A DNA stretch of 64,000 bases from a phage, in NCBI GenBank assembly GCA_026209155.1, contig GCA_026209155.1_3056.1; one strand, given 5' to 3'. The first letter of the stretch is position 1; each line of letters begins with the position of its first letter. The notes under the pieces were generated by a model. The model was not told where the DNA came from. It searched no databases and saw only the letters and a program-made list of their open reading frames with translations. Shown in pieces: positions 1,782 to 52,634 of the stretch. The position numbers and the translations under genes are program-made.

Positions 1782-4046
1782 TCATAATTTACAGGATGAA
1801 CAATCTTCAGCTTTTGGAGTTTCTATTTCATAATCATCAGTACCAGAACCATCACGGGTATTATGATAATAGAAATTTTTAATGCCATAATACCATCCGT
1901 ATAGCATGTCATCAATCATTATTGACATTGGAACCTTTCCTTTTGGAAAAATCTGCGGGTCATAGTATGTATTTGCTGAAGCTGATTGACATACCCATTT
2001 CAGCATAATAGCTACCTGTGTAAGATAAGGTTTATTACCTTTCTTAGCTAATTTCCACGTATAATCATATAGGTCTATGTTATGCTCAATATTGGGCACG
2101 ACTTGATTAAAGGAACCCTCTTTTGATTCTTTAACAGAGACTGGTCCACGTGGAGGCTCGATACCGTTTGTACTGTTAGAAACTTGGGAAGATGACTCAC
2201 ATGGCATAAGTGCTGATAATGTGCTATTACGGATGCCAAAGAGCTTAAGGTCTTCCCGCAGCGACGACCAGTCACAAACGTATTTTGGAGCTGCGATTTG
2301 GTCAATCTTTTTATTGTACCAGTCGATAGGTAATTCACCTCGAGACCAACGAGTGTCTGAATAATATTCGCAAGGTCCTTTTTCTTTGGCGAGCTTAATG
2401 GATGCTTTAATGAGTCCATACTGTAATCTCTCAAATAGTTCATGTGTTAAATCGTTGGCATCTTCATAAGAAGCAAAGTTACTTGCCAGCCAAGCTGCAT
2501 AGTTTGTAACACCTACACCGAGGTTACGACGCTTTTTAGCTTTTTCTGCTTCAGGAACTGGATATCCTTGGTAATCCAAAAGATTATCAAGAGCACGAAC
2601 TTGAACTTCTGCCAATTCATTAATTTTATCTTGGTCTTGCCAGTCAAAATTATCTAGTACGAATGCAGAGAGAGTGCACAATCCAATTTCAGCATCAGGA
2701 CTATTCACATCATTTGTTGGAATAGCAATTTCACAACACAAGTTACTCTGGCGAATAGGTGCCTTTTCACGAATAAACGGAGTATAGTTATTCGTATTAT
2801 CAATGAACTGTACATAAATCCTTGCTGTTCCTGAACGTTCAGTCATGAGCAATTCAAATAGTTCACGGGCTTTAATACGCTTTTTACGAATATTAGGGTC
2901 TTTTTCTGCCGCTTCGTATAATTCACGGAAACGGTCTTGGTCTTTAAAATAAGAATAATAAAGCTCTCCACCCATTTCATGTGGACTGAACAAAGTAATG
3001 TAGTCGTTCTTTCCAAAACGTTCCATCATTAGGTCATTCAGTTGAACGCCATAATCCATATGACGAATGCGGTTTTCTTCTACGCCTTTGTTATTTTTCA
3101 AAACGAGAAGATTTTCAACTTCCAAATGCCAAATAGGATAATAAGCAGTAGCAGCGCCGCCACGAATTCCACCCTGTGAACATGATTTAACTGCAGTCTG
3201 AAAATGTTTCCAAAAAGGAATAACACCGGTATGGCGTACTTCACCCATGCCAATCTTAGAACCTTCGGCACGAATCATACCAACGTTAATACCAATTCCA
3301 GCACGTTTGGAGATATATTCAACAATTGAAGCGGAAGCCTTATTGATAGACTTCAATGAATCTCCTGCCTCAATAACAACACATGAACTAAACTGTCGAG
3401 TCGGAGTACGGCAACCAGCCATAATAGGAGTTGGCAATGAAATCTGTCGAGTAGATACTGCTTCATAAAAACGGATAACATGTTTTAATCTATCAACAGG
3501 TTCGTCTTGATGCAATGCCATTCCAATAGCCATAAATGCAAACTGTGGAGTTTCATAAATTTGACCAGTGGTTTTATCTTTAACGAGATATTTTTCTTTT
3601 AATTGCATCGCCCCGGAATAAGTAAATTCCATATCCCGCTCGTGCTTAATTTTTGATTCTAAAAATGTAATTTCTTCTGCAGAATATTTTGACAACAATT
3701 CAGGGTCATATTTACCTTCATTTACACAGTAAGAAATATGGTCAATAAATGAACGTGGTTCATATTGTCCGTAAACATGCTTACGAAGAGCAAACATTAA
3801 ACAGCGTGCAGCTACATATTGATAATCAGGCTCTTCAACTGAAATAGAATTCGCAGCAGCCTTAATTACAATGGTTTGAATGTCATCAGTGGTCATTCCA
3901 TCACGGAGATATGATTTAATATTTTCATATAATTCATAAGGATCTACAGATGTTCCTTCGGCTGCCCAAGATAAAACTTTAATAATTTTTTGCGGGTCAA
4001 AGCTCTGAGAAACACCACTACTTTTGATAACATTAATTAATTGCAT
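1782..4046 (-). CDS. nrdA: Ribonucleotide reductase large subunit
   Basis: 754 aa, same length as T4 NrdA; class I RNR alpha motifs; end signature CSSCKL-like. Confidence 0.95.
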   Translation of the reverse strand: MQLINVIKSSGVSQSFDPQKIIKVLSWAAEGTSVDPYELYENIKSYLRDGMTTDDIQTIVIKAAANSISVEEPDYQYVAARCLMFALRKHVYGQYEPRSFIDHISYCVNEGKYDPELLSKYSAEEITFLESKIKHERDMEFTYSGAMQLKEKYLVKDKTTGQIYETPQFAFMAIGMALHQDEPVDRLKHVIRFYEAVSTRQISLPTPIMAGCRTPTRQFSSCVVIEAGDSLKSINKASASIVEYISKRAGIGINVGMIRAEGSKIGMGEVRHTGVIPFWKHFQTAVKSCSQGGIRGGAATAYYPIWHLEVENLLVLKNNKGVEENRIRHMDYGVQLNDLMMERFGKNDYITLFSPHEMGGELYYSYFKDQDRFRELYEAAEKDPNIRKKRIKARELFELLMTERSGTARIYVQFIDNTNNYTPFIREKAPIRQSNLCCEIAIPTNDVNSPDAEIGLCTLSAFVLDNFDWQDQDKINELAEVQVRALDNLLDYQGYPVPEAEKAKKRRNLGVGVTNYAAWLASNFASYEDANDLTHELFERLQYGLIKASIKLAKEKGPCEYYSDTRWSRGELPIDWYNKKIDQIAAPKYVCDWSSLREDLKLFGIRNSTLSALMPCESSSQVSNSTNGIEPPRGPVSVKESKEGSFNQVVPNIEHNIDLYDYTWKLAKKGNKPYLTQVAIMLKWVCQSASANTYYDPQIFPKGKVPMSIMIDDMLYGWYYGIKNFYYHNTRDGSGTDDYEIETPKAEDCSSCKL

Positions 4047-4363
4047 AAGTCCTCAACTTGAAAATCGTCTTTAAACAATCGGTTAACTATATGAGCTATT
4101 ATATCACCATGACACGGCTTTGGTTTACATGTGCATCCTAGCCTCATTCCACGTAAAGGCTCTAAATGTGCTTTAGTTATTTCTCCGGATTTAATTCGAC
4201 GTATAAAATCTTTTTTGAATAATTCAATGGCAGCCTCCCGGCTGCCAGCATCTTTACCGACGTAATTTCCCCAAAATGTACCACGGTGAATATTAACATC
4301 AAAGTCGGATTTATATTTATTCACTACCCGACATAGACGGCCCGCGTGGTAATAATTCGTCAT
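4037..4363 (-). CDS. Hypothetical small protein upstream of nrdA (nrdA.1-like), Cys/His cluster [11 protein letters not shown]
   Basis: 108-aa ORF, same strand, start overlaps next ORF, stop overlaps nrdA start. Confidence 0.55.
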
Positions 4364-4592
4364 ATTGTTTTTCCGTTAAAACAGTAATATCATAATAACA
4401 ATCAGAAGAAGTTTTAACTGTAGAAATTTTATTATCAAAATACTCACGAGTCATTTTATGAGTATAATATTTTTTGCCATAAATGATAATAGGCTGATTT
4501 GGTCCTGGAACTTCTAACTCACTTGGGTTAGGAAGTGTAAAAAGAACTACACCAGAAGTATCTTTAAATCGTAAAATCATATATCCTCGCAA
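4317..4592 (-). CDS. Hypothetical small protein (nrdA.2-like)
   Basis: 91-aa ORF in operon context between td exon 2 and nrdA. Confidence 0.5.
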
Positions 4593-4603
4593 TTAATAAT
4601 TAA

Positions 4604-4915
4604 TTACACCGCCATTTTTCCTTTAATAGGAGGGTGTGATTCGTAACCTTTAAGAACGAAATCTTTAGGCCTGAGTTTAAGAACATATTTTAATTGTTCT
4701 TTAGTAGAAAGATAACGGAATTTATAAGGCAATCCGCTTATTACCAGTTCACAAAGCTCTTTAGGTTCACGACGTAAAATTTCTTTACATTGTTCTACGT
4801 GATTCATATAGATATGAGTATTACCGCCAGAAAATATCAAATCTCCAGGAATAAGATTACACATCTTAGCTACAATATGAACTAACGCAGCATATGATGC
4901 AATATTAAATGGAAG
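4604..4915 (-). CDS. td: Thymidylate synthase exon 2 (C-terminal 103 aa, begins LPFNIASY)
   Basis: TS motif LPFNIASYAALVHIVA; the track ATG at 4916-4918 is the last three intron nucleotides, not a real start. Confidence 0.9.
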   Translation of the reverse strand, partial: LPFNIASYAALVHIVAKMCNLIPGDLIFSGGNTHIYMNHVEQCKEILRREPKELCELVISGLPYKFRYLSTKEQLKYVLKLRPKDFVLKGYESHPPIKGKMAV

Positions 4916-5931
4916 CATTATGTTCAGATAAGGTCGTTAATCTTACCCCGGAATTATATCCAGCTGCATGTCACCATGCAGATCAGACTATATCTCCAAC
5001 TTGTTAAAGCAAGTTGTCTATCGTTTCGAGTCACTTGACCCTACTCCCCAAAGGGATAGTCGTTAGGCATTTATGTAGAACCAATTCCATTTATCAGATT
5101 TTACACGATAAGTAACTAATCCAGACGAAATTTTAAAATGTCTAGCTGCATCTGCTGCACAATCAAAAATAACCCCATCACATGAAATCTTTTTAATATT
5201 ACTAGGCTTTTTACCTTTCATCTTTTCTGATATTTTAGATTTAGTTATGTCTGAATGCTTATGATTAAAGAATGAATTATTTTCACCTGAACGATTTCTG
5301 CATTTACTACAAGTATAAGCAGAAGTTTGTATGCGAACACCGCACTTACAAAACTTATGGGTTTCTGGATTCCAACGCCCGTTTTTACTTCCGGGTTTAC
5401 TGTAAAGAGCTTTCCGACCATCAGGTCCAAGTTTAAGCATCTTAGCTTTAACAGTTTCAGAACGTTTCTTAATAATTTCTTCTTTTAATGGATGCGTAGA
5501 ACATGTATCACCAAACGTTGCATCAGCAATATTGTATCCATTAATTTTAGAATTAAGCTCTTTAATCCAAAAATTTTCTCGTTCAATAATCAAATCTTTC
5601 TCATATGGAATTTCTTCCAAAATAGAACATTCAAACACATTACCATGTTTGTTAAAAGACCTCTGAAGCTTTATAGAAGAATGGCATCCTTTTTCTAAAT
5701 CTTTAAAATGCCTCTTCCATCTCTTTTCAAAATCTTTAGCACTTCCTACATATACTTTATTGTTTAAAGTATTTTTAATCTGATAAATTCCGCTTTTCAT
5801 AAATACCTCTTTAAATATAGAAGTATTTATTAAAGGGCAGTCCTACAATTTAGCACGGGATTGTCTACTAGAGAGGTTCCCCGTTTAGATAGATTACAAG
5901 TATAAGTCACCTTATACTCAGGCCTCAATTA
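4916..5931 (-). mobile_element. Group I self-splicing intron in td (1016 nt) carrying the I-TevI gene
   Basis: Exon 1 ends ...CTTGGGT; intron begins TAATTGAGGCCTGAGTATAAGG (minus strand), ends ...AATG before exon 2 CTTCCATTTAAT; matches remembered T4 td intron ends and length. Confidence 0.9.
5063..5800 (-). CDS. Intron-encoded GIY-YIG homing endonuclease I-TevI (245 aa)
   Basis: N-terminal GIYQIKNTLNNKVYVGSAKDFEKRWKRH GIY-YIG motif; NUMOD3-like and Zn-finger region (CKCGVRIQTSAYTCSKC); lies inside the td intron. Confidence 0.92.
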   Translation of the reverse strand: MKSGIYQIKNTLNNKVYVGSAKDFEKRWKRHFKDLEKGCHSSIKLQRSFNKHGNVFECSILEEIPYEKDLIIERENFWIKELNSKINGYNIADATFGDTCSTHPLKEEIIKKRSETVKAKMLKLGPDGRKALYSKPGSKNGRWNPETHKFCKCGVRIQTSAYTCSKCRNRSGENNSFFNHKHSDITKSKISEKMKGKKPSNIKKISCDGVIFDCAADAARHFKISSGLVTYRVKSDKWNWFYINA

Positions 5932-6480
5932 ACCCAAGAAAACATCTACTGATCGTTGATACCACTGCAAATCCAAATAGCCATTACGCACATTAAACTG
6001 ATAGAACATATGACAAGGCGGTAATGCCATTTGCTTGAGTTCAGCTGGATTCCATGCTGAAACAACTTGACGTCTATCATTTGGCAGTTTTTTAATACGA
6101 TCAATAACTTCTACAATTTGGTCTACACCGCCAAAATCACGCCATTGTTTTCCATAAATTGGACCAAGTTCACCGCTATGGTATCCTAAATCTTTTGCTT
6201 GATTTTCGTAATTTTCATCCCAGACTGTTTTGCCTTGAATTAATGAATCATGCTGAATTAATCGTAAATCATTTACGTTAGTACTTCCTGACAAAAACCA
6301 TATTAGCTCAGCAATACAAGCTTTCCAGGCGAGCTTCTTAGTCGTTACTGCAGGAAAACCTTTAGTTAAATCCCAGCGTAATTTAGTACCGAACAAAGCA
6401 ATTGTTCCTGTGCCTGTTCGGTCATCGGTTTCATAGCCATTTTCAAAAATGTCTTTAATTAAATCTTGGTATTGTTTCAT
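5932..6480 (-). CDS. td: Thymidylate synthase exon 1 (N-terminal 183 aa, ends DVFLG)
   Basis: TS motifs (RTGTGT, active-site region PPCH); in-frame TAA is the first intron codon. Confidence 0.9.
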
Positions 6481-6525
6481 TTAGTACCTTATATAAATTA
6501 TAATACATTTTATGAAGCTAAATAA

Positions 6526-6885
6526 TCAATACGGTTTAGCATCAAATTTTCTTTCAATTTCAGGCGTGAAATACAATTCTTTACCGCGTTTGGAAAAGCG
6601 ACCAATAATATGATAATTATTCTCATCAAACGTAATATTGCCAATATCCATAGCTTTCAACCAAATATCGATATTTCTATCCAGTTTTATATCAAAATTC
6701 CAATACGGAGAACTATTACCGAAAATACTGCAAGCGGATTCAGTGAAACAACTACTATAAATCTTGTCTTTAGGAACTACTAATTGATAGACGCCTTTAA
6801 TAAACTGAGGACCCTGCCATTTTGGTTGTTTCGCGTCTTTTTCTAATAGAATAGGGTAATAATTAAAATTCATATTTTCCGCCAC
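6526..6885 (-). CDS. Hypothetical protein, 119 aa, between frd and td
   Basis: ORF in the frd-td interval; I remember frd and td as directly overlapping in T4, so likely an insertion. Confidence 0.5.
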   Translation of the reverse strand: MAENMNFNYYPILLEKDAKQPKWQGPQFIKGVYQLVVPKDKIYSSCFTESACSIFGNSSPYWNFDIKLDRNIDIWLKAMDIGNITFDENNYHIIGRFSKRGKELYFTPEIERKFDAKPY

Positions 6886-6893
6886 GTGTTATT

Positions 6894-7720
<827 letters not shown>

Positions 7721-47954: not shown

Positions 47955-48155
47955 ATGGTGCAAAAATTAATGGCACTTGTTGATGCCATCAAAGGTAATA
48001 AAAAACGTATAGCTTTTACTATTTCTGCTATGATAGGAATTTTACTTTGGAATTTTGTTTTATCGCCAGTTGCTATTGCTCATGGCGTTAGTATTCCAGT
48101 AATTACTCTTGATACATTCGTAGATTTAGCATTTGCTTTAGTTGGGTTAATTTAA
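47955..48155 (+). CDS. Small hydrophobic membrane protein (66 aa) on the opposite strand between genes 56 and 61
   Basis: AGGAGG Shine-Dalgarno 5 nt upstream of ATG; two predicted TM segments; stop overlaps gene 61 stop. Confidence 0.55.
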   Translation: MVQKLMALVDAIKGNKKRIAFTISAMIGILLWNFVLSPVAIAHGVSIPVITLDTFVDLAFALVGLI

Positions 48156-49180
48156 ATCTTAGCATATTTAGATAGCCGCATTTTAGCCATCAACCCCTGC
48201 GCAATATTATTTTTCATATATTCCATAATTTGTTCAGGGGTTGCACCTTCCTTTCTAATCATATCATTGACATCTTTTGATTTCCAGGGAGATTTATCCC
48301 AAAACATAACCCTTTCTCCTGCATCAACTAATTTAGTCATTCGTTTAATAGTGTCAGGGTGACGAGGTTCATTATCTAAAACCCATACACGTCTATCTTT
48401 AAATGGAACAATTTCTAGGTCTAATTGACCACCCGTAATAGCTATACCATTTTCAATAAAAAGTGAATCTATAGGTCCTTCTAGAACATATACATCACCA
48501 TCTTTAACCCGTTCGACTCCATAAATTTTTGTTGCCTCAGGATAAGCTTTGATGGTGATATATTTTTGGGGAGCGTCTTTCTTTAATGCACGTCCTTGAA
48601 AAGACTCAGCTTTTCCATTAGCATTATAAATTGGAATAACAAGACGAGGCTCAGGTATTTCCTTTTTATATGTTCCTGGCGCTATGCTATTAACTAATTT
48701 AGGCCATTCGGTTGTAAACCAAAGATATTTCCATTTATCCTTTGGAATACAGCGAGCTTTTACGTATTTTATAATTGGATGGTCTTCCGTCAGTTTATCT
48801 AATCTAATGCATGACGGAAGAGATTTAATTATTTTCTTCTCGGGTTGTTTAGGAAGTTCTTTAGGTTTTTCTACTGGACGACTTTTACCTTTTTCTTTTC
48901 TTATTTCAAAGATATACTCACGATATAAATCAGGTTCAAACTCCTTTAAATATATTCCGATTGGTGCATGATAGTTACAGTTATAGCAATGAATATTTCC
49001 TTCATTATTATCACCATAATACCATCCACGGGCTTTATTTTGGTCGGTTTTTGAATCTCCACAAACAGGGCATCTAAACCGTAATTTAAAAGTTGAACTA
49101 TTATTTACTTGTGTAAATTTAGGTAAATGAGCTAGCGCACGATATGCAAACTCATTATCAATCCAAGGTATTGATGACAT
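48152..49180 (-). CDS. 61: DNA primase gp61
   Basis: 342 aa as in T4 gp61; zinc ribbon CPVCGDSK...CYNC and Toprim region. Confidence 0.93.
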   Translation of the reverse strand: MSSIPWIDNEFAYRALAHLPKFTQVNNSSTFKLRFRCPVCGDSKTDQNKARGWYYGDNNEGNIHCYNCNYHAPIGIYLKEFEPDLYREYIFEIRKEKGKSRPVEKPKELPKQPEKKIIKSLPSCIRLDKLTEDHPIIKYVKARCIPKDKWKYLWFTTEWPKLVNSIAPGTYKKEIPEPRLVIPIYNANGKAESFQGRALKKDAPQKYITIKAYPEATKIYGVERVKDGDVYVLEGPIDSLFIENGIAITGGQLDLEIVPFKDRRVWVLDNEPRHPDTIKRMTKLVDAGERVMFWDKSPWKSKDVNDMIRKEGATPEQIMEYMKNNIAQGLMAKMRLSKYAKI

Positions 49181-49182
49181 TT

Positions 49183-49347
49183 TTACTCTTCTTTTTCTTT
49201 AGATTCCTCTTTTTTCTTTTTAGGAATCTGTTCAGGGCCTTTATTTACTACAGCACCTGATGTTGTTCCAGTGGAGATATTTTCAGGATTACCACCTGAA
49301 TCTCCAGCGACCATATCTTCTTTGATAAATTCTTTAAACGTTTTCAT
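49183..49347 (-). CDS. Hypothetical small Lys/Glu-rich protein (54 aa, 61.1-like), not in ORF track; coordinates +/-1
   Basis: Hand-translated MKTFKEFIKEDMVAGDSGGNPENISTGTTSGAVVNKGPEQIPKKKKEESKEKEE. Confidence 0.4.
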   Translation of the reverse strand: MKTFKEFIKEDMVAGDSGGNPENISTGTTSGAVVNKGPEQIPKKKKEESKEKEE

Positions 49348-49348
49348 A

Positions 49349-49975
49349 TTAACCTCTATTCATAAAAGCGTTAAAAATTTGGTCATCAATAGAAACATTT
49401 ACTTTAGACTGTTTTTCAGATGGCAATTCATATCCACATATTACAATTTTATGATCAATATCAAAATACACAGAAGCAATATGATTAATGATATTTTCAG
49501 TGAAGTCTAAATCGACATCAATATCTTTTTGACCAAAGCCAAAAGGATAAATAATGCGAGTAATTCGATTATCTTTAACAAAGATTCCACCGACATACTC
49601 TGTACTGCGTTTAAAGTCTACACGCCGACGAAATGAAAAATATTCAGGCTCTTTATGAGCTCGGCTCATAGGACACAACGAATAACTAGAATAAGAGATG
49701 TCAAATCCTACGCCTTCGATATGAGCCAAAGTGTCATGATTAAACCAATTATAATCGTACGCCAAATCCATTAGATTATAATATGTAAAAGGCACCGGAT
49801 TAACATCATTAGTCACAAGCATATAATTAGCAACTGCTATAATTTCATTGTTTTTAACGAATACAAACCGTGATTGATGCGAATGGCCTGAACCCGCGTT
49901 TTCACGATTAATGATATAACACTGGGCACCTTTATATTTGTATGTATCTTTGCACTTGTGCATTTGATAGAGCAT
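49349..49975 (-). CDS. Hypothetical protein (61.2-like)
   Basis: 208-aa ORF between 61.1 and sp. Confidence 0.55.
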   Translation of the reverse strand: MLYQMHKCKDTYKYKGAQCYIINRENAGSGHSHQSRFVFVKNNEIIAVANYMLVTNDVNPVPFTYYNLMDLAYDYNWFNHDTLAHIEGVGFDISYSSYSLCPMSRAHKEPEYFSFRRRVDFKRSTEYVGGIFVKDNRITRIIYPFGFGQKDIDVDLDFTENIINHIASVYFDIDHKIVICGYELPSEKQSKVNVSIDDQIFNAFMNRG

Positions 49976-50268
49976 TATTCACCTACCACTTCAGCGATGA
50001 TATTTTTGTTATTAAAGTTTTTATCGCAATACAGAACATAATTATACTGCATTACACCACCAGACTTAAGTTGTTTTTGCACTTCAGCTTTCATTTCAGG
50101 ACGATCGCGCTCAACGATATTCATAATATCCGCTTCAATTTGAGTTTCAACTTCAGTCTGATCCGCAGTCATAGACCATTCGCACAAATCTTTATCATAA
50201 CCTGCCATAGCAGGCTGAGCAGCACAAGAAGCTAAAGCAAAAATTGCGGCAAAGATAAATTTTTTCAT
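49975..50268 (-). CDS. sp: Spackle periplasmic protein (superinfection exclusion)
   Basis: 97 aa with N-terminal signal peptide MKKFIFAAIFALASCAAQPAMA; position matches T4 sp (61.3). Confidence 0.8.
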   Translation of the reverse strand: MKKFIFAAIFALASCAAQPAMAGYDKDLCEWSMTADQTEVETQIEADIMNIVERDRPEMKAEVQKQLKSGGVMQYNYVLYCDKNFNNKNIIAEVVGE

Positions 50269-50295
50269 GATAATCTCCTCAGTAGTTTATGTTTA

Positions 50296-50328
50296 TATAG
50301 TATCTCAATTTCCAACAAAAGTAAACAG
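50296..50328 (-). promoter_or_regulatory. T4-type early promoter upstream of sp
   Basis: Minus-strand GTTTAC-17 nt-TACTATATAA. Confidence 0.5.
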
Positions 50329-50628
50329 TTATTTTAAAACTTCTGCGTAATCACATGTTACAAACTGTTTCTCTAGCTTGACGATTTTACGAAAGTATCT
50401 TTTACATTGACGAATCTGTCGCTTAGTAGGGCGCACAGCAAACTTAATAAATTCCACTCGACCAAATGGAGGGCTTTCTTCTGATGGAATATCTAACACC
50501 AATTCCCACGTATCTGCAATAAGTGCTTTGAATTGAGTATTTTTCCTAACGTTATACGGAGTAGGTTTAAATAAAACAATATGCATATTATCCTCGGCAA
50601 TCCACTTCACATACTTTCTTGTCATCAA
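50329..50628 (-). CDS. Hypothetical protein (61.4-like)
   Basis: 99-aa basic ORF directly downstream of dmd. Confidence 0.5.
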   Translation of the reverse strand: MMTRKYVKWIAEDNMHIVLFKPTPYNVRKNTQFKALIADTWELVLDIPSEESPPFGRVEFIKFAVRPTKRQIRQCKRYFRKIVKLEKQFVTCDYAEVLK

Positions 50629-50770
50629 TGAAAGCTTTAACTAATGCTTTATTAACTTCAGCATACTGAGTAGTAGCCCATTGAACGTCATCTTTCATCA
50701 TTGTGGTTTCTTTAGTAAACATGCTTTCATTCTTAAACCACCCCATAAAAACTACCTTTACCAATTCCAT
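50588..50770 (-). CDS. dmd: Dmd antitoxin (blocks host RnlA/LsoA RNase toxins)
   Basis: 60 aa, same length as T4 Dmd; first gene after gene 41. Confidence 0.75.
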   Translation of the reverse strand: MELVKVVFMGWFKNESMFTKETTMMKDDVQWATTQYAEVNKALVKAFIDDKKVCEVDCRG

Positions 50771-50797
50771 AACAATCTCCTCATTTAACCAACAAGA

Positions 50798-50830
50798 CTA
50801 CTATACCATAGTCTCGTCAGCTTGTAAACT
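50798..50830 (-). promoter_or_regulatory. T4-type early promoter for dmd, abutting the gene 41 stop
   Basis: Minus-strand GTTTAC-18 nt-GTATAGTAG. Confidence 0.5.
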
Positions 50831-52256
50831 AAAATTTTAATTCATTCGCCAAAGCATCTAACTGAGCTCGAGTGGATTCATTTCTTTGATAGCGATTCTG
50901 CTCAGCCTGAATCTGTTGTGAACCTGCTACTTCGTTCACTTCAGTTGGAGTAGAATCTTGTTCAATTTCTACCCATTTCTGATTTCCCTTTTGAACACCC
51001 ATCAAAAACTTATTCCACTTATTCTTATCGCCATATCGTGATTTGATTTGCTTAATGAGTTGTTGTTCAGCAGCTGCTAGCTCCTCGGTTTCAATGACCG
51101 CAAGCATAAAATCAGCTGTTGCTGGAAGACCGGCAGATTCTGCGATATCACTCATGTTAACATCAGAAGAATCCCAAGCTTGTTTACCAACCTGTGCTGC
51201 AGTCCAAAGAACAGTTTCGGTTTCAACAGCCAGAGCACGCAATTCCTCTGCAATAGCTTTAACAGTTGTGTAACTATTTTCTGAATAAACTCTAATGCGG
51301 CAAGATTTACAAATACCTAGATAGTCGACAATAATGATTGTTGGAACAAAATTCTTCTTGAGCTTCAATTCGTTTAAAAGTGATCGAAATGTATTAGCAT
51401 CTGCTCCACCGGTAGGATACTGTTTAACGATTAAACGACCGAGAGTAGATTTCTCACGCCATTTTTCCATTTTTCCTTTATACTCAGCGTAAGAAATATG
51501 CCCATCATCAATGTCATCAAGAGAAACATCAAGCATATTAGCATCAATACGCTTAGCACAGACTTCTTCTGCCATTTCCATGGAAATGTAAAGAACGTTA
51601 TGACCAAGCTGCAAATAATCTGCTGCCAATGAACACAATCCTAATGACTTACCAACGTTAACGCCAGCCATTAAAACGTTCAGTGTTCCAGTCTCAGCTC
51701 CGCCTTTAGTAATTTTGTTTAGAATTCTGAGTTTAAATGGAACCTTACGAGCTTTATTCATATAAGATAGCCAACGTGCTTCGTAGTCATCCATCCAGTC
51801 ATGACCAACGTAGCTATCAAATGAAATTGATAATGCTTGCCGCATGATGTCAGGAATAGCACCAACATCCGGCATTTTCTTATTTCGTTTTTCCGGAGGA
51901 AGCTCAGCATTAGTTTGAATTTCGATTATTTTAGACGTAGCATTAAACATCGCCCTTTGCTGAACATATTTTTCTGTTTCTTTTACTAACCAGCTGTGGT
52001 CTTCCGGAGAATCAGCCAGTTTTGAAATAAGTGTTTTTACACCAGAATATTCTGTTTCAGTAAATGAACTATTTTCTAATGCAACATTTAACGCATTAAT
52101 AGATGGAACGCTATGATACTCATTAACATGAGATTTAATTAATTTGAATGTATTTTTAGCTGGACCACTTTCAAAATATTCTGAATCCATATATGGCCAA
52201 ACTTTTGAAAAATAAGCTTGATCAAATATGAGATGAGAAAGAATAATTTCTACCAC
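50829..52256 (-). CDS. 41: Replicative DNA helicase gp41 (DnaB-like)
   Basis: 475 aa as in T4 gp41; Walker A GVNVGKS. Confidence 0.93.
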   Translation of the reverse strand: MVEIILSHLIFDQAYFSKVWPYMDSEYFESGPAKNTFKLIKSHVNEYHSVPSINALNVALENSSFTETEYSGVKTLISKLADSPEDHSWLVKETEKYVQQRAMFNATSKIIEIQTNAELPPEKRNKKMPDVGAIPDIMRQALSISFDSYVGHDWMDDYEARWLSYMNKARKVPFKLRILNKITKGGAETGTLNVLMAGVNVGKSLGLCSLAADYLQLGHNVLYISMEMAEEVCAKRIDANMLDVSLDDIDDGHISYAEYKGKMEKWREKSTLGRLIVKQYPTGGADANTFRSLLNELKLKKNFVPTIIIVDYLGICKSCRIRVYSENSYTTVKAIAEELRALAVETETVLWTAAQVGKQAWDSSDVNMSDIAESAGLPATADFMLAVIETEELAAAEQQLIKQIKSRYGDKNKWNKFLMGVQKGNQKWVEIEQDSTPTEVNEVAGSQQIQAEQNRYQRNESTRAQLDALANELKF

Positions 52257-52265
52257 ACTTACTCC

Positions 52266-52634
52266 TTAAAAGAATTTAAATTTTTTCTTTGACCTTTTAT
52301 TAAATGCATCTTGTAGTTGCATTGTAATACATTTTTCTACATGAGGAGCTAACTCAGCTTTTCTTTCTTGGTCAAGAACAGCAAAGTCCATTACAACCTT
52401 TCCATCAACCCAATCCAGTTTAGTTACATACACTATATGTGTAGAACCATCTTCTAGTTTAATGACAATCTCCTGGATAACATTTTCCATAGCGGATTTA
52501 ATTATCTTAAGAGACTCATTAAAAAGACGTTCTTTTCTTTCTTCTTCCCCCTCCGAAGAGGGGGATTCATCGATAATTTCTAGATCTAAATCTAAATCTA
52601 AATCATCTTTATTCATTAAATTCTTCCATATCAC
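52266..52634 (-). CDS. 40: gp40-like protein (head assembly) with DLDLDLDLE acidic repeat
   Basis: 122-aa ORF between uvsX and 41. Confidence 0.6.
   Translation of the reverse strand: MIWKNLMNKDDLDLDLDLEIIDESPSSEGEEERKERLFNESLKIIKSAMENVIQEIVIKLEDGSTHIVYVTKLDWVDGKVVMDFAVLDQERKAELAPHVEKCITMQLQDAFNKRSKKKFKFF

Follow-up and report, generated by a model that had tools for sequence, protein, structure and literature searches.

A probable Tequatrovirus copy of the T4 'anti-TA island' between helicase and primase genes, adjoining a primase-linked gene with apparent likeness to the capsid protein gp23

In bacteriophage T4, the region of small genes that separates the helicase gene 41 from the primase gene 61 was named the 'anti-TA island' by Srikant et al. 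2022 (PMC9391042), and genes of this region beyond those characterised were called attractive antitoxin candidates in the same work. The product of gene 61.4, TifA, is an inhibitor of ToxN, the endoribonuclease encoded by the type III system toxIN, and this activity has been demonstrated for the TifA proteins of T4, T2, T6 and RB69 (PMC9391042); mechanistically, TifA binds both ToxN and RNA (PMC10853763). The product of gene 61.2, AdfA, neutralises DarT1 of the DarTG1 system (PMC11825919; LeRoux et al. 2022, as cited in PMC9391042 and PMC11825919). An early promoter located 5' of dmd transcribes dmd and tifA together in T4, and amplifications of these two genes arise at microhomologies of 6-10 bp that flank the locus (PMC9391042). 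Like the anti-CRISPR and anti-restriction islands of other phages, an analogy drawn in PMC9391042, the region groups small inhibitor genes that are early and evolve fast, and close relatives differ in their complement of such genes.

Here we describe the corresponding region of the window, that is, the entire 64,000-nucleotide stretch of phage DNA that was analysed. With a probability of about 0.93, we interpret it as the Tequatrovirus copy of the T4 'anti-TA island', with two early units between genes 41 and 61. The interval 49183-50770 (minus strand), between gene 41 and gene 61, is filled exactly by five ORFs that keep the T4 order, namely, 41, dmd, 61.4, sp, 61.2, 61.1, 61; this is the dmd-61.4-sp-61.2-61.1 module that a first-pass annotation had placed between helicase and primase. 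The features, in the direction of transcription, are as follows:

50829-52256, minus strand: gene 41, replicative helicase, flanking gene, 100% identical to T4
50800-50828, minus strand: promoter-like element 5' of dmd, TTTACA-17-TATAGT with an upstream TG, 10/12 matches
50765-50783 and 50263-50281, strand not applicable: direct repeat of 19 nt, 84% identical
50588-50770, minus strand: dmd (61.5), 60 aa, PF17587, antitoxin-like inhibitor of RnlA/LsoA RNase toxins
50329-50586, minus strand: tifA (61.4), 85 aa, PF23945 (DUF7279) and phrog_2375, ToxN inhibitor, RNA-binding protein
50297-50325, minus strand: promoter-like element 5' of sp, TTTACT-17-TACTAT, 8/12 matches
49975-50268, minus strand: sp (spackle, 61.3), 97 aa including a signal peptide, PF25676, inhibits the gp5 tail lysozyme of superinfecting phage from the periplasm
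49349-49975, minus strand: adfA (61.2), 208 aa, anti-DarT factor A, PF23813
49183-49347, minus strand: 61.1, 54 aa, with the leader MKTFKEFIKE, a gp23-N-arm-like segment at residues 10-39 and a Lys/Glu tail, phrog_1823
48152-49180, minus strand: gene 61, primase, flanking gene, 336/342 residues identical to T4

Full-length family matches were obtained for four of the five proteins (Dmd, TifA, Spackle and AdfA), and the fifth, gp61.1, has a PHROG match (phrog_1823, E 6.8e-34); PADLOC and NCBIfam returned no matches for any of the five, and an Rfam scan of positions 48000-52500 gave none at E up to 0.1. The amino acid identity to T4 amounts to 59/60 for dmd, 83/85 for 61.4, 95/97 for sp, 201/208 for 61.2 and 53/54 for 61.1, and the 1.8-kb stretch around the locus is matched in 533 phage records. 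The gene identities and boundaries, the operon-like junctions and the TifA Phe41 and AdfA His164 alleles discussed below were read from the window sequence, and the biochemical activities come from the literature on T4 proteins that are 97-98% identical. Genes 61.4 and 61.2 had been singled out from their position as counter-defence candidates; comparison with T4 identifies them as orthologues (98% and 97% identical, respectively) of genes that have been established experimentally as encoding the ToxN inhibitor and an anti-DarT1 factor. The evidence supports the positional inference as correct, but it had been published in 2022, so the analysis rediscovers the island in a T4 relative, with position alone having picked the right genes.

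The T4 island itself (PMC9391042; LeRoux et al. 2022) agrees with the window region in gene content, order, strand and junctions and also in the promoter-like elements, and a few substitutions separate the two. Only two intergenic gaps are present in the window region, 58 nt between 41 and dmd and 60 nt between tifA and sp, and both hold a (G)TTTAC-17-TAxxxT element that is the same as in T4 or nearly so, the 58-nt gap having two substitutions compared with T4 and the 60-nt gap being identical. The other junctions measure 1 nt (dmd/tifA and adfA/61.1) and 2 nt (61.1/61), and sp and adfA overlap by 1 nt (TAATG). The earlier description of the small genes as each separated by early promoters must be amended: the region has only two gaps, each with an element, and all remaining junctions are of 2 nt or less. 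This arrangement points to two transcription units, dmd-tifA and sp-adfA-61.1-61, with junctions of 0-2 nt inside each, the second being headed by the element at 50297-50325 as a putative promoter. With only 8/12 matches, this element is absent from the output of a generic sigma-70 scan, which yielded 11 sites against 9.0 +/- 3.3 in shuffled sequences; given this lack of excess, we based the promoter assignment on the elements in the two gaps and on their agreement with T4. Scans of the region found no terminators and no late-promoter motif TATAAATA. The T4 genes dmd, 61.4, sp and 61.2 are expressed early, as judged from RNA as well as protein.

In the mechanism that we propose, Dmd would bind and block the RnlA/LsoA RNases, TifA would bind ToxN together with RNA, so that the RNase becomes trapped on bulk cellular RNA, and, from the second unit, AdfA would bind the DarT1 ADP-ribosyltransferase so that phage DNA stays unmodified. 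Spackle would move to the periplasm, where the tail lysozyme of later-arriving T-even phages would be blocked, and gp61.1 would be made as the third small protein of this unit, ahead of the primase. Sp is a superinfection exclusion protein, not a counter-defence protein, and because it counters no host defence, the island is functionally mixed. The inclusion of such a gene, the targeting of TA toxins and the location between core replication genes distinguish the window region from anti-CRISPR and anti-restriction islands.

The 60-aa ORF after gene 41, previously described as Dmd-like, matches PF17587 from end to end (E 1.8e-45, residues 1-60 on profile positions 1-60) as well as PDB entry 5hy3_B, 'Antitoxin Dmd' (E 9.6e-37), and a single change, Ile22Thr, separates it from T4 Dmd. 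At 98% identity to the crystallised T4 protein, it is predicted to bind and inhibit RnlA/LsoA. Spackle, likewise recognised in the first pass, shows a full match to PF25676 (E 5.5e-45) and to a solved structure, 6x6o_A (E 4.2e-61); in another structure, 7cn6_A, residue 23, which follows MKKFIFAAIFALASCAAQPAMA, is the first of the mature chain.

TifA (E 2e-20 for PF23945 and 8.2e-38 for phrog_2375) retains the basic cluster K55, R56 and R59, which is needed in RNA binding, and has Phe, the weaker T4-type state, at residue 41, which is located at the interface (PMC10853763). In single copy, T4-type TifA (Phe41) is too weak against plasmid-borne toxIN (PMC9391042, PMC10853763); the RB69 protein, which is shorter and a stronger ToxN inhibitor (PMC9391042), has His41 (PMC10853763). 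Phe41 in the window TifA predicts weak inhibition of ToxN unless the gene is amplified, and a possible seed of amplification is present in the window. The two copies of the 19-nt direct repeat lie on either side of the dmd-tifA unit and share an exact 10-mer, TGAGGAGATT, which coincides with the ribosome sites of these genes, dmd in one copy and sp in the other; by analogy with the T4 microhomologies, this repeat may have a role in dmd-tifA amplification.

AdfA aligns with PF23813 over residues 1-208 (profile positions 1-211, E 8.6e-136). The T4 and RB69 alleles have been compared in bacterial two-hybrid and plating experiments, in which binding to DarT1 was found to depend on His164, with Arg164 of RB69 being inactive; the binding of T4-type AdfA to DarT1 is weak, and T4 can do without this protein, since AdfN (gene 30.3) carries most of the load (PMC11825919). 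The window protein has His164 (ENIINHIASVY, against ENNINRIASVY in RB69) and differs from T4 AdfA at 7 positions, with the RB69 residue at 4 of these 7, so its strength against DarT1 could differ from that of T4 AdfA; His164 and the four RB69-like residues predict binding at least equal to that of the T4 protein. The window alleles can thus be read against published structure-function data, and we would expect them to act like those of T4, TifA being weak and AdfA binding DarT1 alongside other factors that back it up. Given that AdfA is dispensable in T4 and that wild-type TifA fails against plasmid-borne toxIN, the natural targets of these proteins may be other toxin variants. A PDB sequence search with AdfA retrieved no relative, and a model of moderate quality (AlphaFold2 from an alignment of 14 sequences of this narrow family, 68-97% identical; pLDDT 70.5, pTM 0.55) had no match in a Foldseek comparison with the PDB (best E 0.12, TM 0.22 or below). 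This null result agrees with the literature, in which AdfA is described as lacking structural relatives.

Gene content changes already among close relatives. The closest ones, Bas41 and G10400 (99.2% DNA identity), have an extra gene for a 118-aa protein between adfA and 61.1, which is missing in the window. The RB69 region (NC_004928, 16.2-21 kb) follows the order of the window, 41 ... dmd, 61.4, sp, 61.2 ... 61.1, 61, with additional genes, namely, ORF041c, ORF040c, imm.1, imm, ORF033c and ORF032c. Across 66 related loci, the presence of dmd, tifA, sp, adfA and imm between 41 and 61.1 varies, and dmd, tifA, sp and adfA, which are present, missing or replaced depending on the locus, show the accessory-gene pattern of variable content between the fixed flanks 41, 61.1 and 61. 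By contrast, the 61.1 module adjoins gene 61 on its upstream side in nearly all gene-61 loci of this set, including those in which it is all that separates 41 from 61, the exception being a locus with about 1.9 kb between the two (L069). Gene 61.1 is a core-like, primase-linked gene and not an accessory gene of the island with which it had been counted; it should be dropped from the 'island' candidates, and it has a clear, testable link to the maturation site of the capsid protein.

Residues 10-39 of gp61.1 match residues 65-94 of the major capsid protein gp23 in a PDB search, agreeing at 15 of 30 positions, and Glu10|Asp11 of gp61.1 is aligned with the gp23 maturation site Glu65|Ala66. The profiles of the two families align over 51 columns in hhalign, with a probability of 98.1% (E 9.5e-14), and the common motif is GD-x-G-[GY]-x3-(N)IA-x-G-x-(T/N)SG-x4-GP. 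On these grounds, together with a shuffle test and the recovery of capsid genes by tblastn, we regard 61.1 as a homologue of the part of gp23 that comprises the cleavage junction and the N-terminal arm. The HK97-like fold that follows in gp23 is lacking in gp61.1; after the Gly-Pro, gp61.1 has a Lys-rich tail, whereas gp23 has the conserved VMGMVRRAIPN. When 1.84 billion representatives were searched with the profile of the 61.1 family, 54 proteins were retrieved, with no full-length capsid protein at E <=0.001. The similarity to gp23 otherwise appears only in automatic annotation, as 'major capsid domain-containing protein', and we found no paper on it in the literature searched.

The decapeptide that precedes the gp23-like segment, MKTFKEFIKE, agrees at 7 of 10 positions with each of the leaders of the T4 internal proteins, IPI (MKTFKEF...) and IPII/III (MKTYQEFIAE), and it keeps the aromatic residue at position 4 and Phe7, which serve in targeting, and Ile8 and Glu10, which serve in processing, among the determinants of the capsid-targeting sequence, or CTS (PMC9026906). 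No other CTS-like N-terminus is found in the 64-kb window. A possible explanation, which we offer tentatively, is that gp61.1 is targeted to the head by this decapeptide and cut after Glu10 by gp21, leaving a 44-aa product in the head, injected, or bound to a partner of the gp23 N-arm; less probable by a small margin is the specific version in which gp61.1 enters proheads and, once cut, provides a free 'gp23 N-arm' that would take part in assembling the head or be injected as a peptide. In addition to the leader and the alignment at the maturation site, head targeting is favoured by the retention of [LIMVF]-x-Glu directly before the gp23-like module in 56 of 61 family members, by purifying selection on 61.1 (dN/dS 0.03-0.13) and by the early RNA that 61.1 shares with the bona fide internal proteins of T4. 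However, the body of gp61.1 is gp23-like, unlike any internal protein, and the ip genes are variable, in contrast to 61.1; in the T4-like phages examined, 61.1 is linked to the primase and never to head genes, and no late-promoter motif lies near it. Furthermore, gp61.1 was not detected in T4 infected-cell proteomics, and the literature searched contains no report of gp61.1 in virions or of its processing by gp21. Most 61.1 homologues, moreover, are 130-165 aa long, with an unrelated N-terminal domain instead of the 10-aa leader, so the CTS likeness could have arisen secondarily, through truncation of such a protein at its amphipathic helix. In these long homologues, Pfam searches gave only noise and PHROG searches gave families of unknown function; in RB69, where 61.1 encodes 92 aa and is preceded by ORF032c, the two together correspond to the long form. 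If head targeting is correct, gp61.1 would be an unrecognised head component encoded within the replication module; cleavage by the prohead protease, if it occurs, would make gp61.1 a new part of one of the best-studied systems of virus assembly.

The fixed location of 61.1 could conceivably reflect a role with the primosome, as a small partner or regulator of the primase or as a coupling leader for gene 61, the likeness to gp23 then being an old domain capture. The gene lies immediately 5' of 61 in T-evens, in RB69-like and JS98-like phages and in 230-245-kb contigs of the Vibrio/Aeromonas type, with gp41 identity falling to 44%; a distance of 2 nt separates its stop codon from the ATG of gene 61, which suggests translational coupling, its RNA is early, as for replication genes, and its Lys-rich tail could bind nucleic acid. 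Nevertheless, we regard this role as doubtful: strong purifying selection and the conserved [LIMVF]-x-Glu junction would be unexpected if only coupling mattered. To our knowledge, no component of the T4 primosome corresponds to gp61.1.

An anti-defence function of 61.1, for example, as a decoy of the gp23 N-region that blunts a Lit-like or other capsid-triggered host sensor, appears improbable. Such a role would be in keeping with the resemblance of gp61.1 to part of the first quarter of gp23, a region tied to EF-Tu binding and Lit activation, with the location of 61.1 next to adfA in the same transcription unit and with the published view, cited above, of the region's other genes as antitoxin candidates. 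However, unlike dmd, tifA, sp and adfA, 61.1 is fixed in distant T4-like phages of other hosts, a pattern of core function and not of accessory counter-defence, and it has no match to PADLOC or anti-defence families.

At the DNA level, the first 21 nt of 61.1 are identical to those of ipI at 20 positions; such agreement would follow from the shared residues and AT-rich codons and allows no conclusion on the origin of the leader.

As for the extent of tifA, the size of 99 aa given for 61.4 in the first-pass annotation corresponds to a TTG-initiated reading (50329-50628), the longest ORF in its frame, which we reject as extremely improbable because it would share 41 nt with dmd, PHROG coverage starts only at its residue 15, the ATG at 50586 is located 1 nt past the dmd stop with GAGGA 4 nt upstream, and the 85-aa protein is that of the T4 annotation and functional work, in which deletion of the ATG abolishes activity (PMC9391042, which also states a size of 85 aa for T4 TifA). 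A PDB sequence search with TifA retrieved no relative. In the published fold, a three-stranded sheet packs against the C-terminal helix and a long loop is present (PMC10853763); a single-sequence AlphaFold2 model, unreliable at pLDDT 44, matches this description in its secondary structure, with strands at residues 2-6, 27-32 and 44-49 and a helix at residues 55-70.

The minus-strand interval 49183-50770 of this T4-like phage (Tequatrovirus) is filled exactly by five small ORFs between genes 41 and 61, and the order 41, dmd, 61.4 (tifA), sp, 61.2 (adfA), 61.1, 61 is that of T4. Full-length family matches of Dmd (PF17587, E 1.8e-45), gp61.4 (DUF7279, PF23945, E 2e-20), Sp (T4_Spackle, PF25676, E 5.5e-45) and gp61.2 (AdfA, 'Anti-DarT factor A', PF23813, E 8.6e-136), together with the T4 order and the protein identities to T4 (Dmd 59/60, gp61.4 83/85, Sp 95/97, gp61.2 201/208, gp61.1 53/54), identify the ORFs delineated in the first-pass annotation as real genes, far beyond chance. 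In the family searches, 61.1 matched only the unnamed phrog_1823; PADLOC, NCBIfam and Rfam added nothing for the region. The 1.8-kb stretch is matched by 533 phage records, with a top identity of 99.2%, and over the surrounding 20 kb no single record exceeds 97.2%.

Flanking genes, promoter-like elements and junctions of the five-gene module
50829-52256, minus strand: gene 41, helicase (gp41 475/475 identical to T4)
50828-50800: promoter-like TTTACA-17-TATAGT with TG, gap between 41 and dmd
50325-50297: promoter-like TTTACT-17-TACTAT, gap between tifA and sp
48152-49180, minus strand: gene 61, primase (gp61 336/342 identical to T4)
Junction 41 to dmd: 58 nt
Junction dmd to tifA: 1 nt
Junction tifA to sp: 60 nt
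Junction sp to adfA: 1-nt overlap (TAATG)
Junction adfA to 61.1: 1 nt
Junction 61.1 to 61: 2 nt

Two details of the original description require correction. Early promoters had been placed between all of the genes, but promoter-like elements occur in the only two real gaps and the other junctions are tight, so the module comprises two units, dmd-tifA and sp-adfA-61.1-61. The gap ahead of sp matches T4 base for base, and that ahead of dmd has two base differences from T4; in a generic promoter scan, promoter-like sites were not in excess and no terminators were found. In T4, a single early promoter upstream of dmd drives dmd and tifA (Srikant et al., PMC9391042), and dmd, 61.4, sp and 61.2 are early in both the RNA and the protein data. 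Furthermore, the supposed 99-aa basic ORF is the 85-aa gene 61.4, starting at the ATG at 50586, which lies one base past the dmd stop with GAGGA four bases upstream. The family profile starts at residue 15 of the 99-aa reading, 61.4 is annotated as 85 aa in T4, and functional work on TifA concerned the 85-aa protein, the activity of which was lost once this ATG was deleted (PMC9391042). The 99-aa version is the longest TTG-started ORF (50329-50628) and was rejected for its 41-nt overlap with dmd.

With these corrections, the interpretation of the region as an anti-defence island, with the products of 61.4 and 61.2 as counter-defence proteins, is supported and already known: near-identical T4 TifA and AdfA have been shown to inhibit ToxN and DarT1, respectively, and Srikant et al. 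(PMC9391042) explicitly named the region a possible 'anti-TA island'. These activities are established for the T4 proteins and would be expected of their counterparts here; nothing in the PDB, Foldseek and family checks pointed to a housekeeping function. Dmd, represented in the PDB by 5hy3_B ('Antitoxin Dmd'), inhibits the RnlA/LsoA toxins according to literature cited in PMC9391042. Gene 61.4 has been renamed tifA. Amplification of dmd-tifA lets T4 escape the type III toxIN system; ToxN toxicity is rescued by the TifA protein and not by tifA RNA, TifA co-precipitates with ToxN, and the homologs from T2, T4, T6 and RB69 all inhibit ToxN, that of RB69 most potently (PMC9391042). TifA binds both ToxN and RNA, apparently trapping the toxin on abundant RNAs, 16S rRNA among them; the RNA-seq control was the K55A/R56A/R59A mutant, which we take to be the RNA-binding-deficient form, and T4 TifA is strengthened by F41S and F41H (PMC10853763). 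Given that K55, R56, R59 and Phe41 are all present, the TifA encoded here is probably the weaker, T4-type allele. The published T4 amplifications arise at 6-10-bp microhomologies flanking the locus (PMC9391042). Here, dmd-tifA is bracketed by a 19-nt imperfect direct repeat (50263-50281 and 50765-50783, 502 nt apart) that contains the exact 10-mer TGAGGAGATT and coincides with the sp and dmd ribosome sites, a plausible seed for such tandem amplification, so that the substrate for the toxIN escape route would be present.

AdfA (49349-49975, minus strand) differs from its T4 ortholog at seven positions, at four of which (Pro62, Tyr66, Thr82, Ala84) it has the RB69 residue, and carries His164. 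The R164H replacement confers DarT1 neutralization on RB69 AdfA, T4 naturally has His164, and a two-hybrid assay detects binding of AdfA to DarT1; the T4 allele is a weak binder that the phage can do without, since protection against DarTG1 comes mainly from AdfN (gene 30.3) (PMC11825919). The four RB69 residues combined with the activating histidine suggest that the present allele may bind DarT1 better than that of T4. The structure predictions proposed for both proteins gave for AdfA a mostly beta AlphaFold2 model with three helices (pLDDT 70.5), without a PDB relative by sequence or in Foldseek (best E 0.12), in agreement with the published description of AdfA as lacking structural homologs (PMC11825919); TifA has no PDB relative, and its single-sequence model was too poor for use. 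In the closest relatives, an extra 118-aa gene (1750-2106 of locus L002, from phage Bas41, MZ501067), missing here between 49347 and 49349, separates adfA from 61.1. The gene (phrog_4122) is paralogous to the AdfA C-terminal half and has the same terminal SIDDQIFNAFMNRG, and these shared ends look like a recombination site for gain or loss.

Spackle blocks the tail lysozyme (gp5) of superinfecting phage, so Sp, which matches solved Spackle structures and has a mature chain beginning at residue 23, serves exclusion rather than counter-defence. In RB69 (3318-6900 of locus L004, from NC_004928), the region is larger, with four additional unnamed ORFs and with imm and imm.1 beside sp.

The one lead that merits a bench test concerns 61.1 (54 aa; 49183-49347, minus strand). 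Unexpectedly, a PDB sequence search matched residues 3-39 to residues 58-94 of the T4 major capsid protein gp23 (E 0.0039). Between residues 10-39 (EDMVAGDSGGNPENISTGTTSGAVVNKGPE) and gp23 65-94 (EAEIGGDHGYNATNIAAGQTSGAVTQIGPA), 15 of 30 positions are identical, and the local score of 83 was reached in none of 5000 shuffles (29 +/- 4.4). A 34-member 61.1 family profile aligned with eight gp23 N-termini over 51 columns (hhalign probability 98.1%, E 9.5e-14), and the family DNA pattern recovered three full-length gp23-like genes from one viral contig. The low in-register nucleotide identity (49/90; third positions 10/30) indicates that the likeness is old and maintained at the protein level; 61.1 is under strong purifying selection (dN/dS 0.03-0.13 against relatives). 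Glu10|Asp11 aligns with Glu65|Ala66 of gp23, the junction at which solved mature chains start and the maturation site of the prohead protease gp21, with its Leu/Ile-x-Glu motif; [LIMVF]-x-Glu immediately precedes the module in 56 of 61 family members. The 61.1 protein is homologous to the part of gp23 that spans the maturation-cleavage junction and the N-terminal arm. Some databases auto-name its homologs 'major capsid domain-containing protein', and no paper on gp61.1 was found in the literature searched. The gp23-like genes (537, 541 and 519 aa) lie in tandem at 2458-7413 of the 10-kb contig IMGVR_UViG_3300033696_000001. A 1126-aa protein from the homolog search (P0017) matches profile positions 28-48 in 15 separate stretches, probably through repetitive or Lys-rich low-complexity sequence.

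Synteny separates 61.1 from the island genes. Among 66 viral loci with the family, from T-evens to 230-245-kb contigs, the module immediately precedes gene 61 in almost all that carry this gene, including the large contigs, where gp41 is just 44-46% identical; in one exception (locus L069) ~1.9 kb intervenes. Several loci have nothing but the 61.1 module between 41 and 61, and dmd, tifA, sp, adfA and imm come and go. Most homologs are 130-165 aa, with an N-terminal phrog_2086 domain ahead of the same module, and in RB69 the long form is divided between two ORFs in different frames with a 4-nt overlap, ORF032c and a 92-aa 61.1; the 54-aa T-even protein thus represents a core-like gene in its minimal form.

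What gp61.1 does can be proposed only tentatively. In the unexpanded prohead, the N-terminal region of gp23 is internal and probably sits on the scaffolding core, and after cleavage and expansion it becomes the external N-arm and N-fist; by copying the junction, gp61.1 could be recruited and cut like gp23. Its capsid-targeting-like leader MKTFKEFIKE, shared in kind with the internal head proteins (IPI has MKTFKEF; IPII/III have MKTYQEFIAE, 7/10 in common) and starting no other ORF in the 64-kb window, covers the positions on which head targeting (4, 7) and processing (8, 10) reportedly depend (PMC9026906). Early transcription is no bar to a head role, as ipI, ipII and ipIII RNAs are early too; however, gp61.1 was not detected in T4 infected-cell proteomics, a late promoter motif is absent nearby, and the fixed primase linkage points equally to the replication side. 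We give head targeting a probability of about 0.3. The primase linkage would fit a role in the primosome, which we consider rather unlikely, and a decoy or anti-defence function is more doubtful still.

On the far side of gene 61, T4 has the methylase gene dam between 56 and 61, whereas dam is absent there in the window; a 66-aa hydrophobic ORF (47955-48155, plus strand) lies between the dCTPase gene 56 and gene 61, opposite in strand, and is annotated also in RB69 (ORF029w) and Bas41 (bas41_0145).
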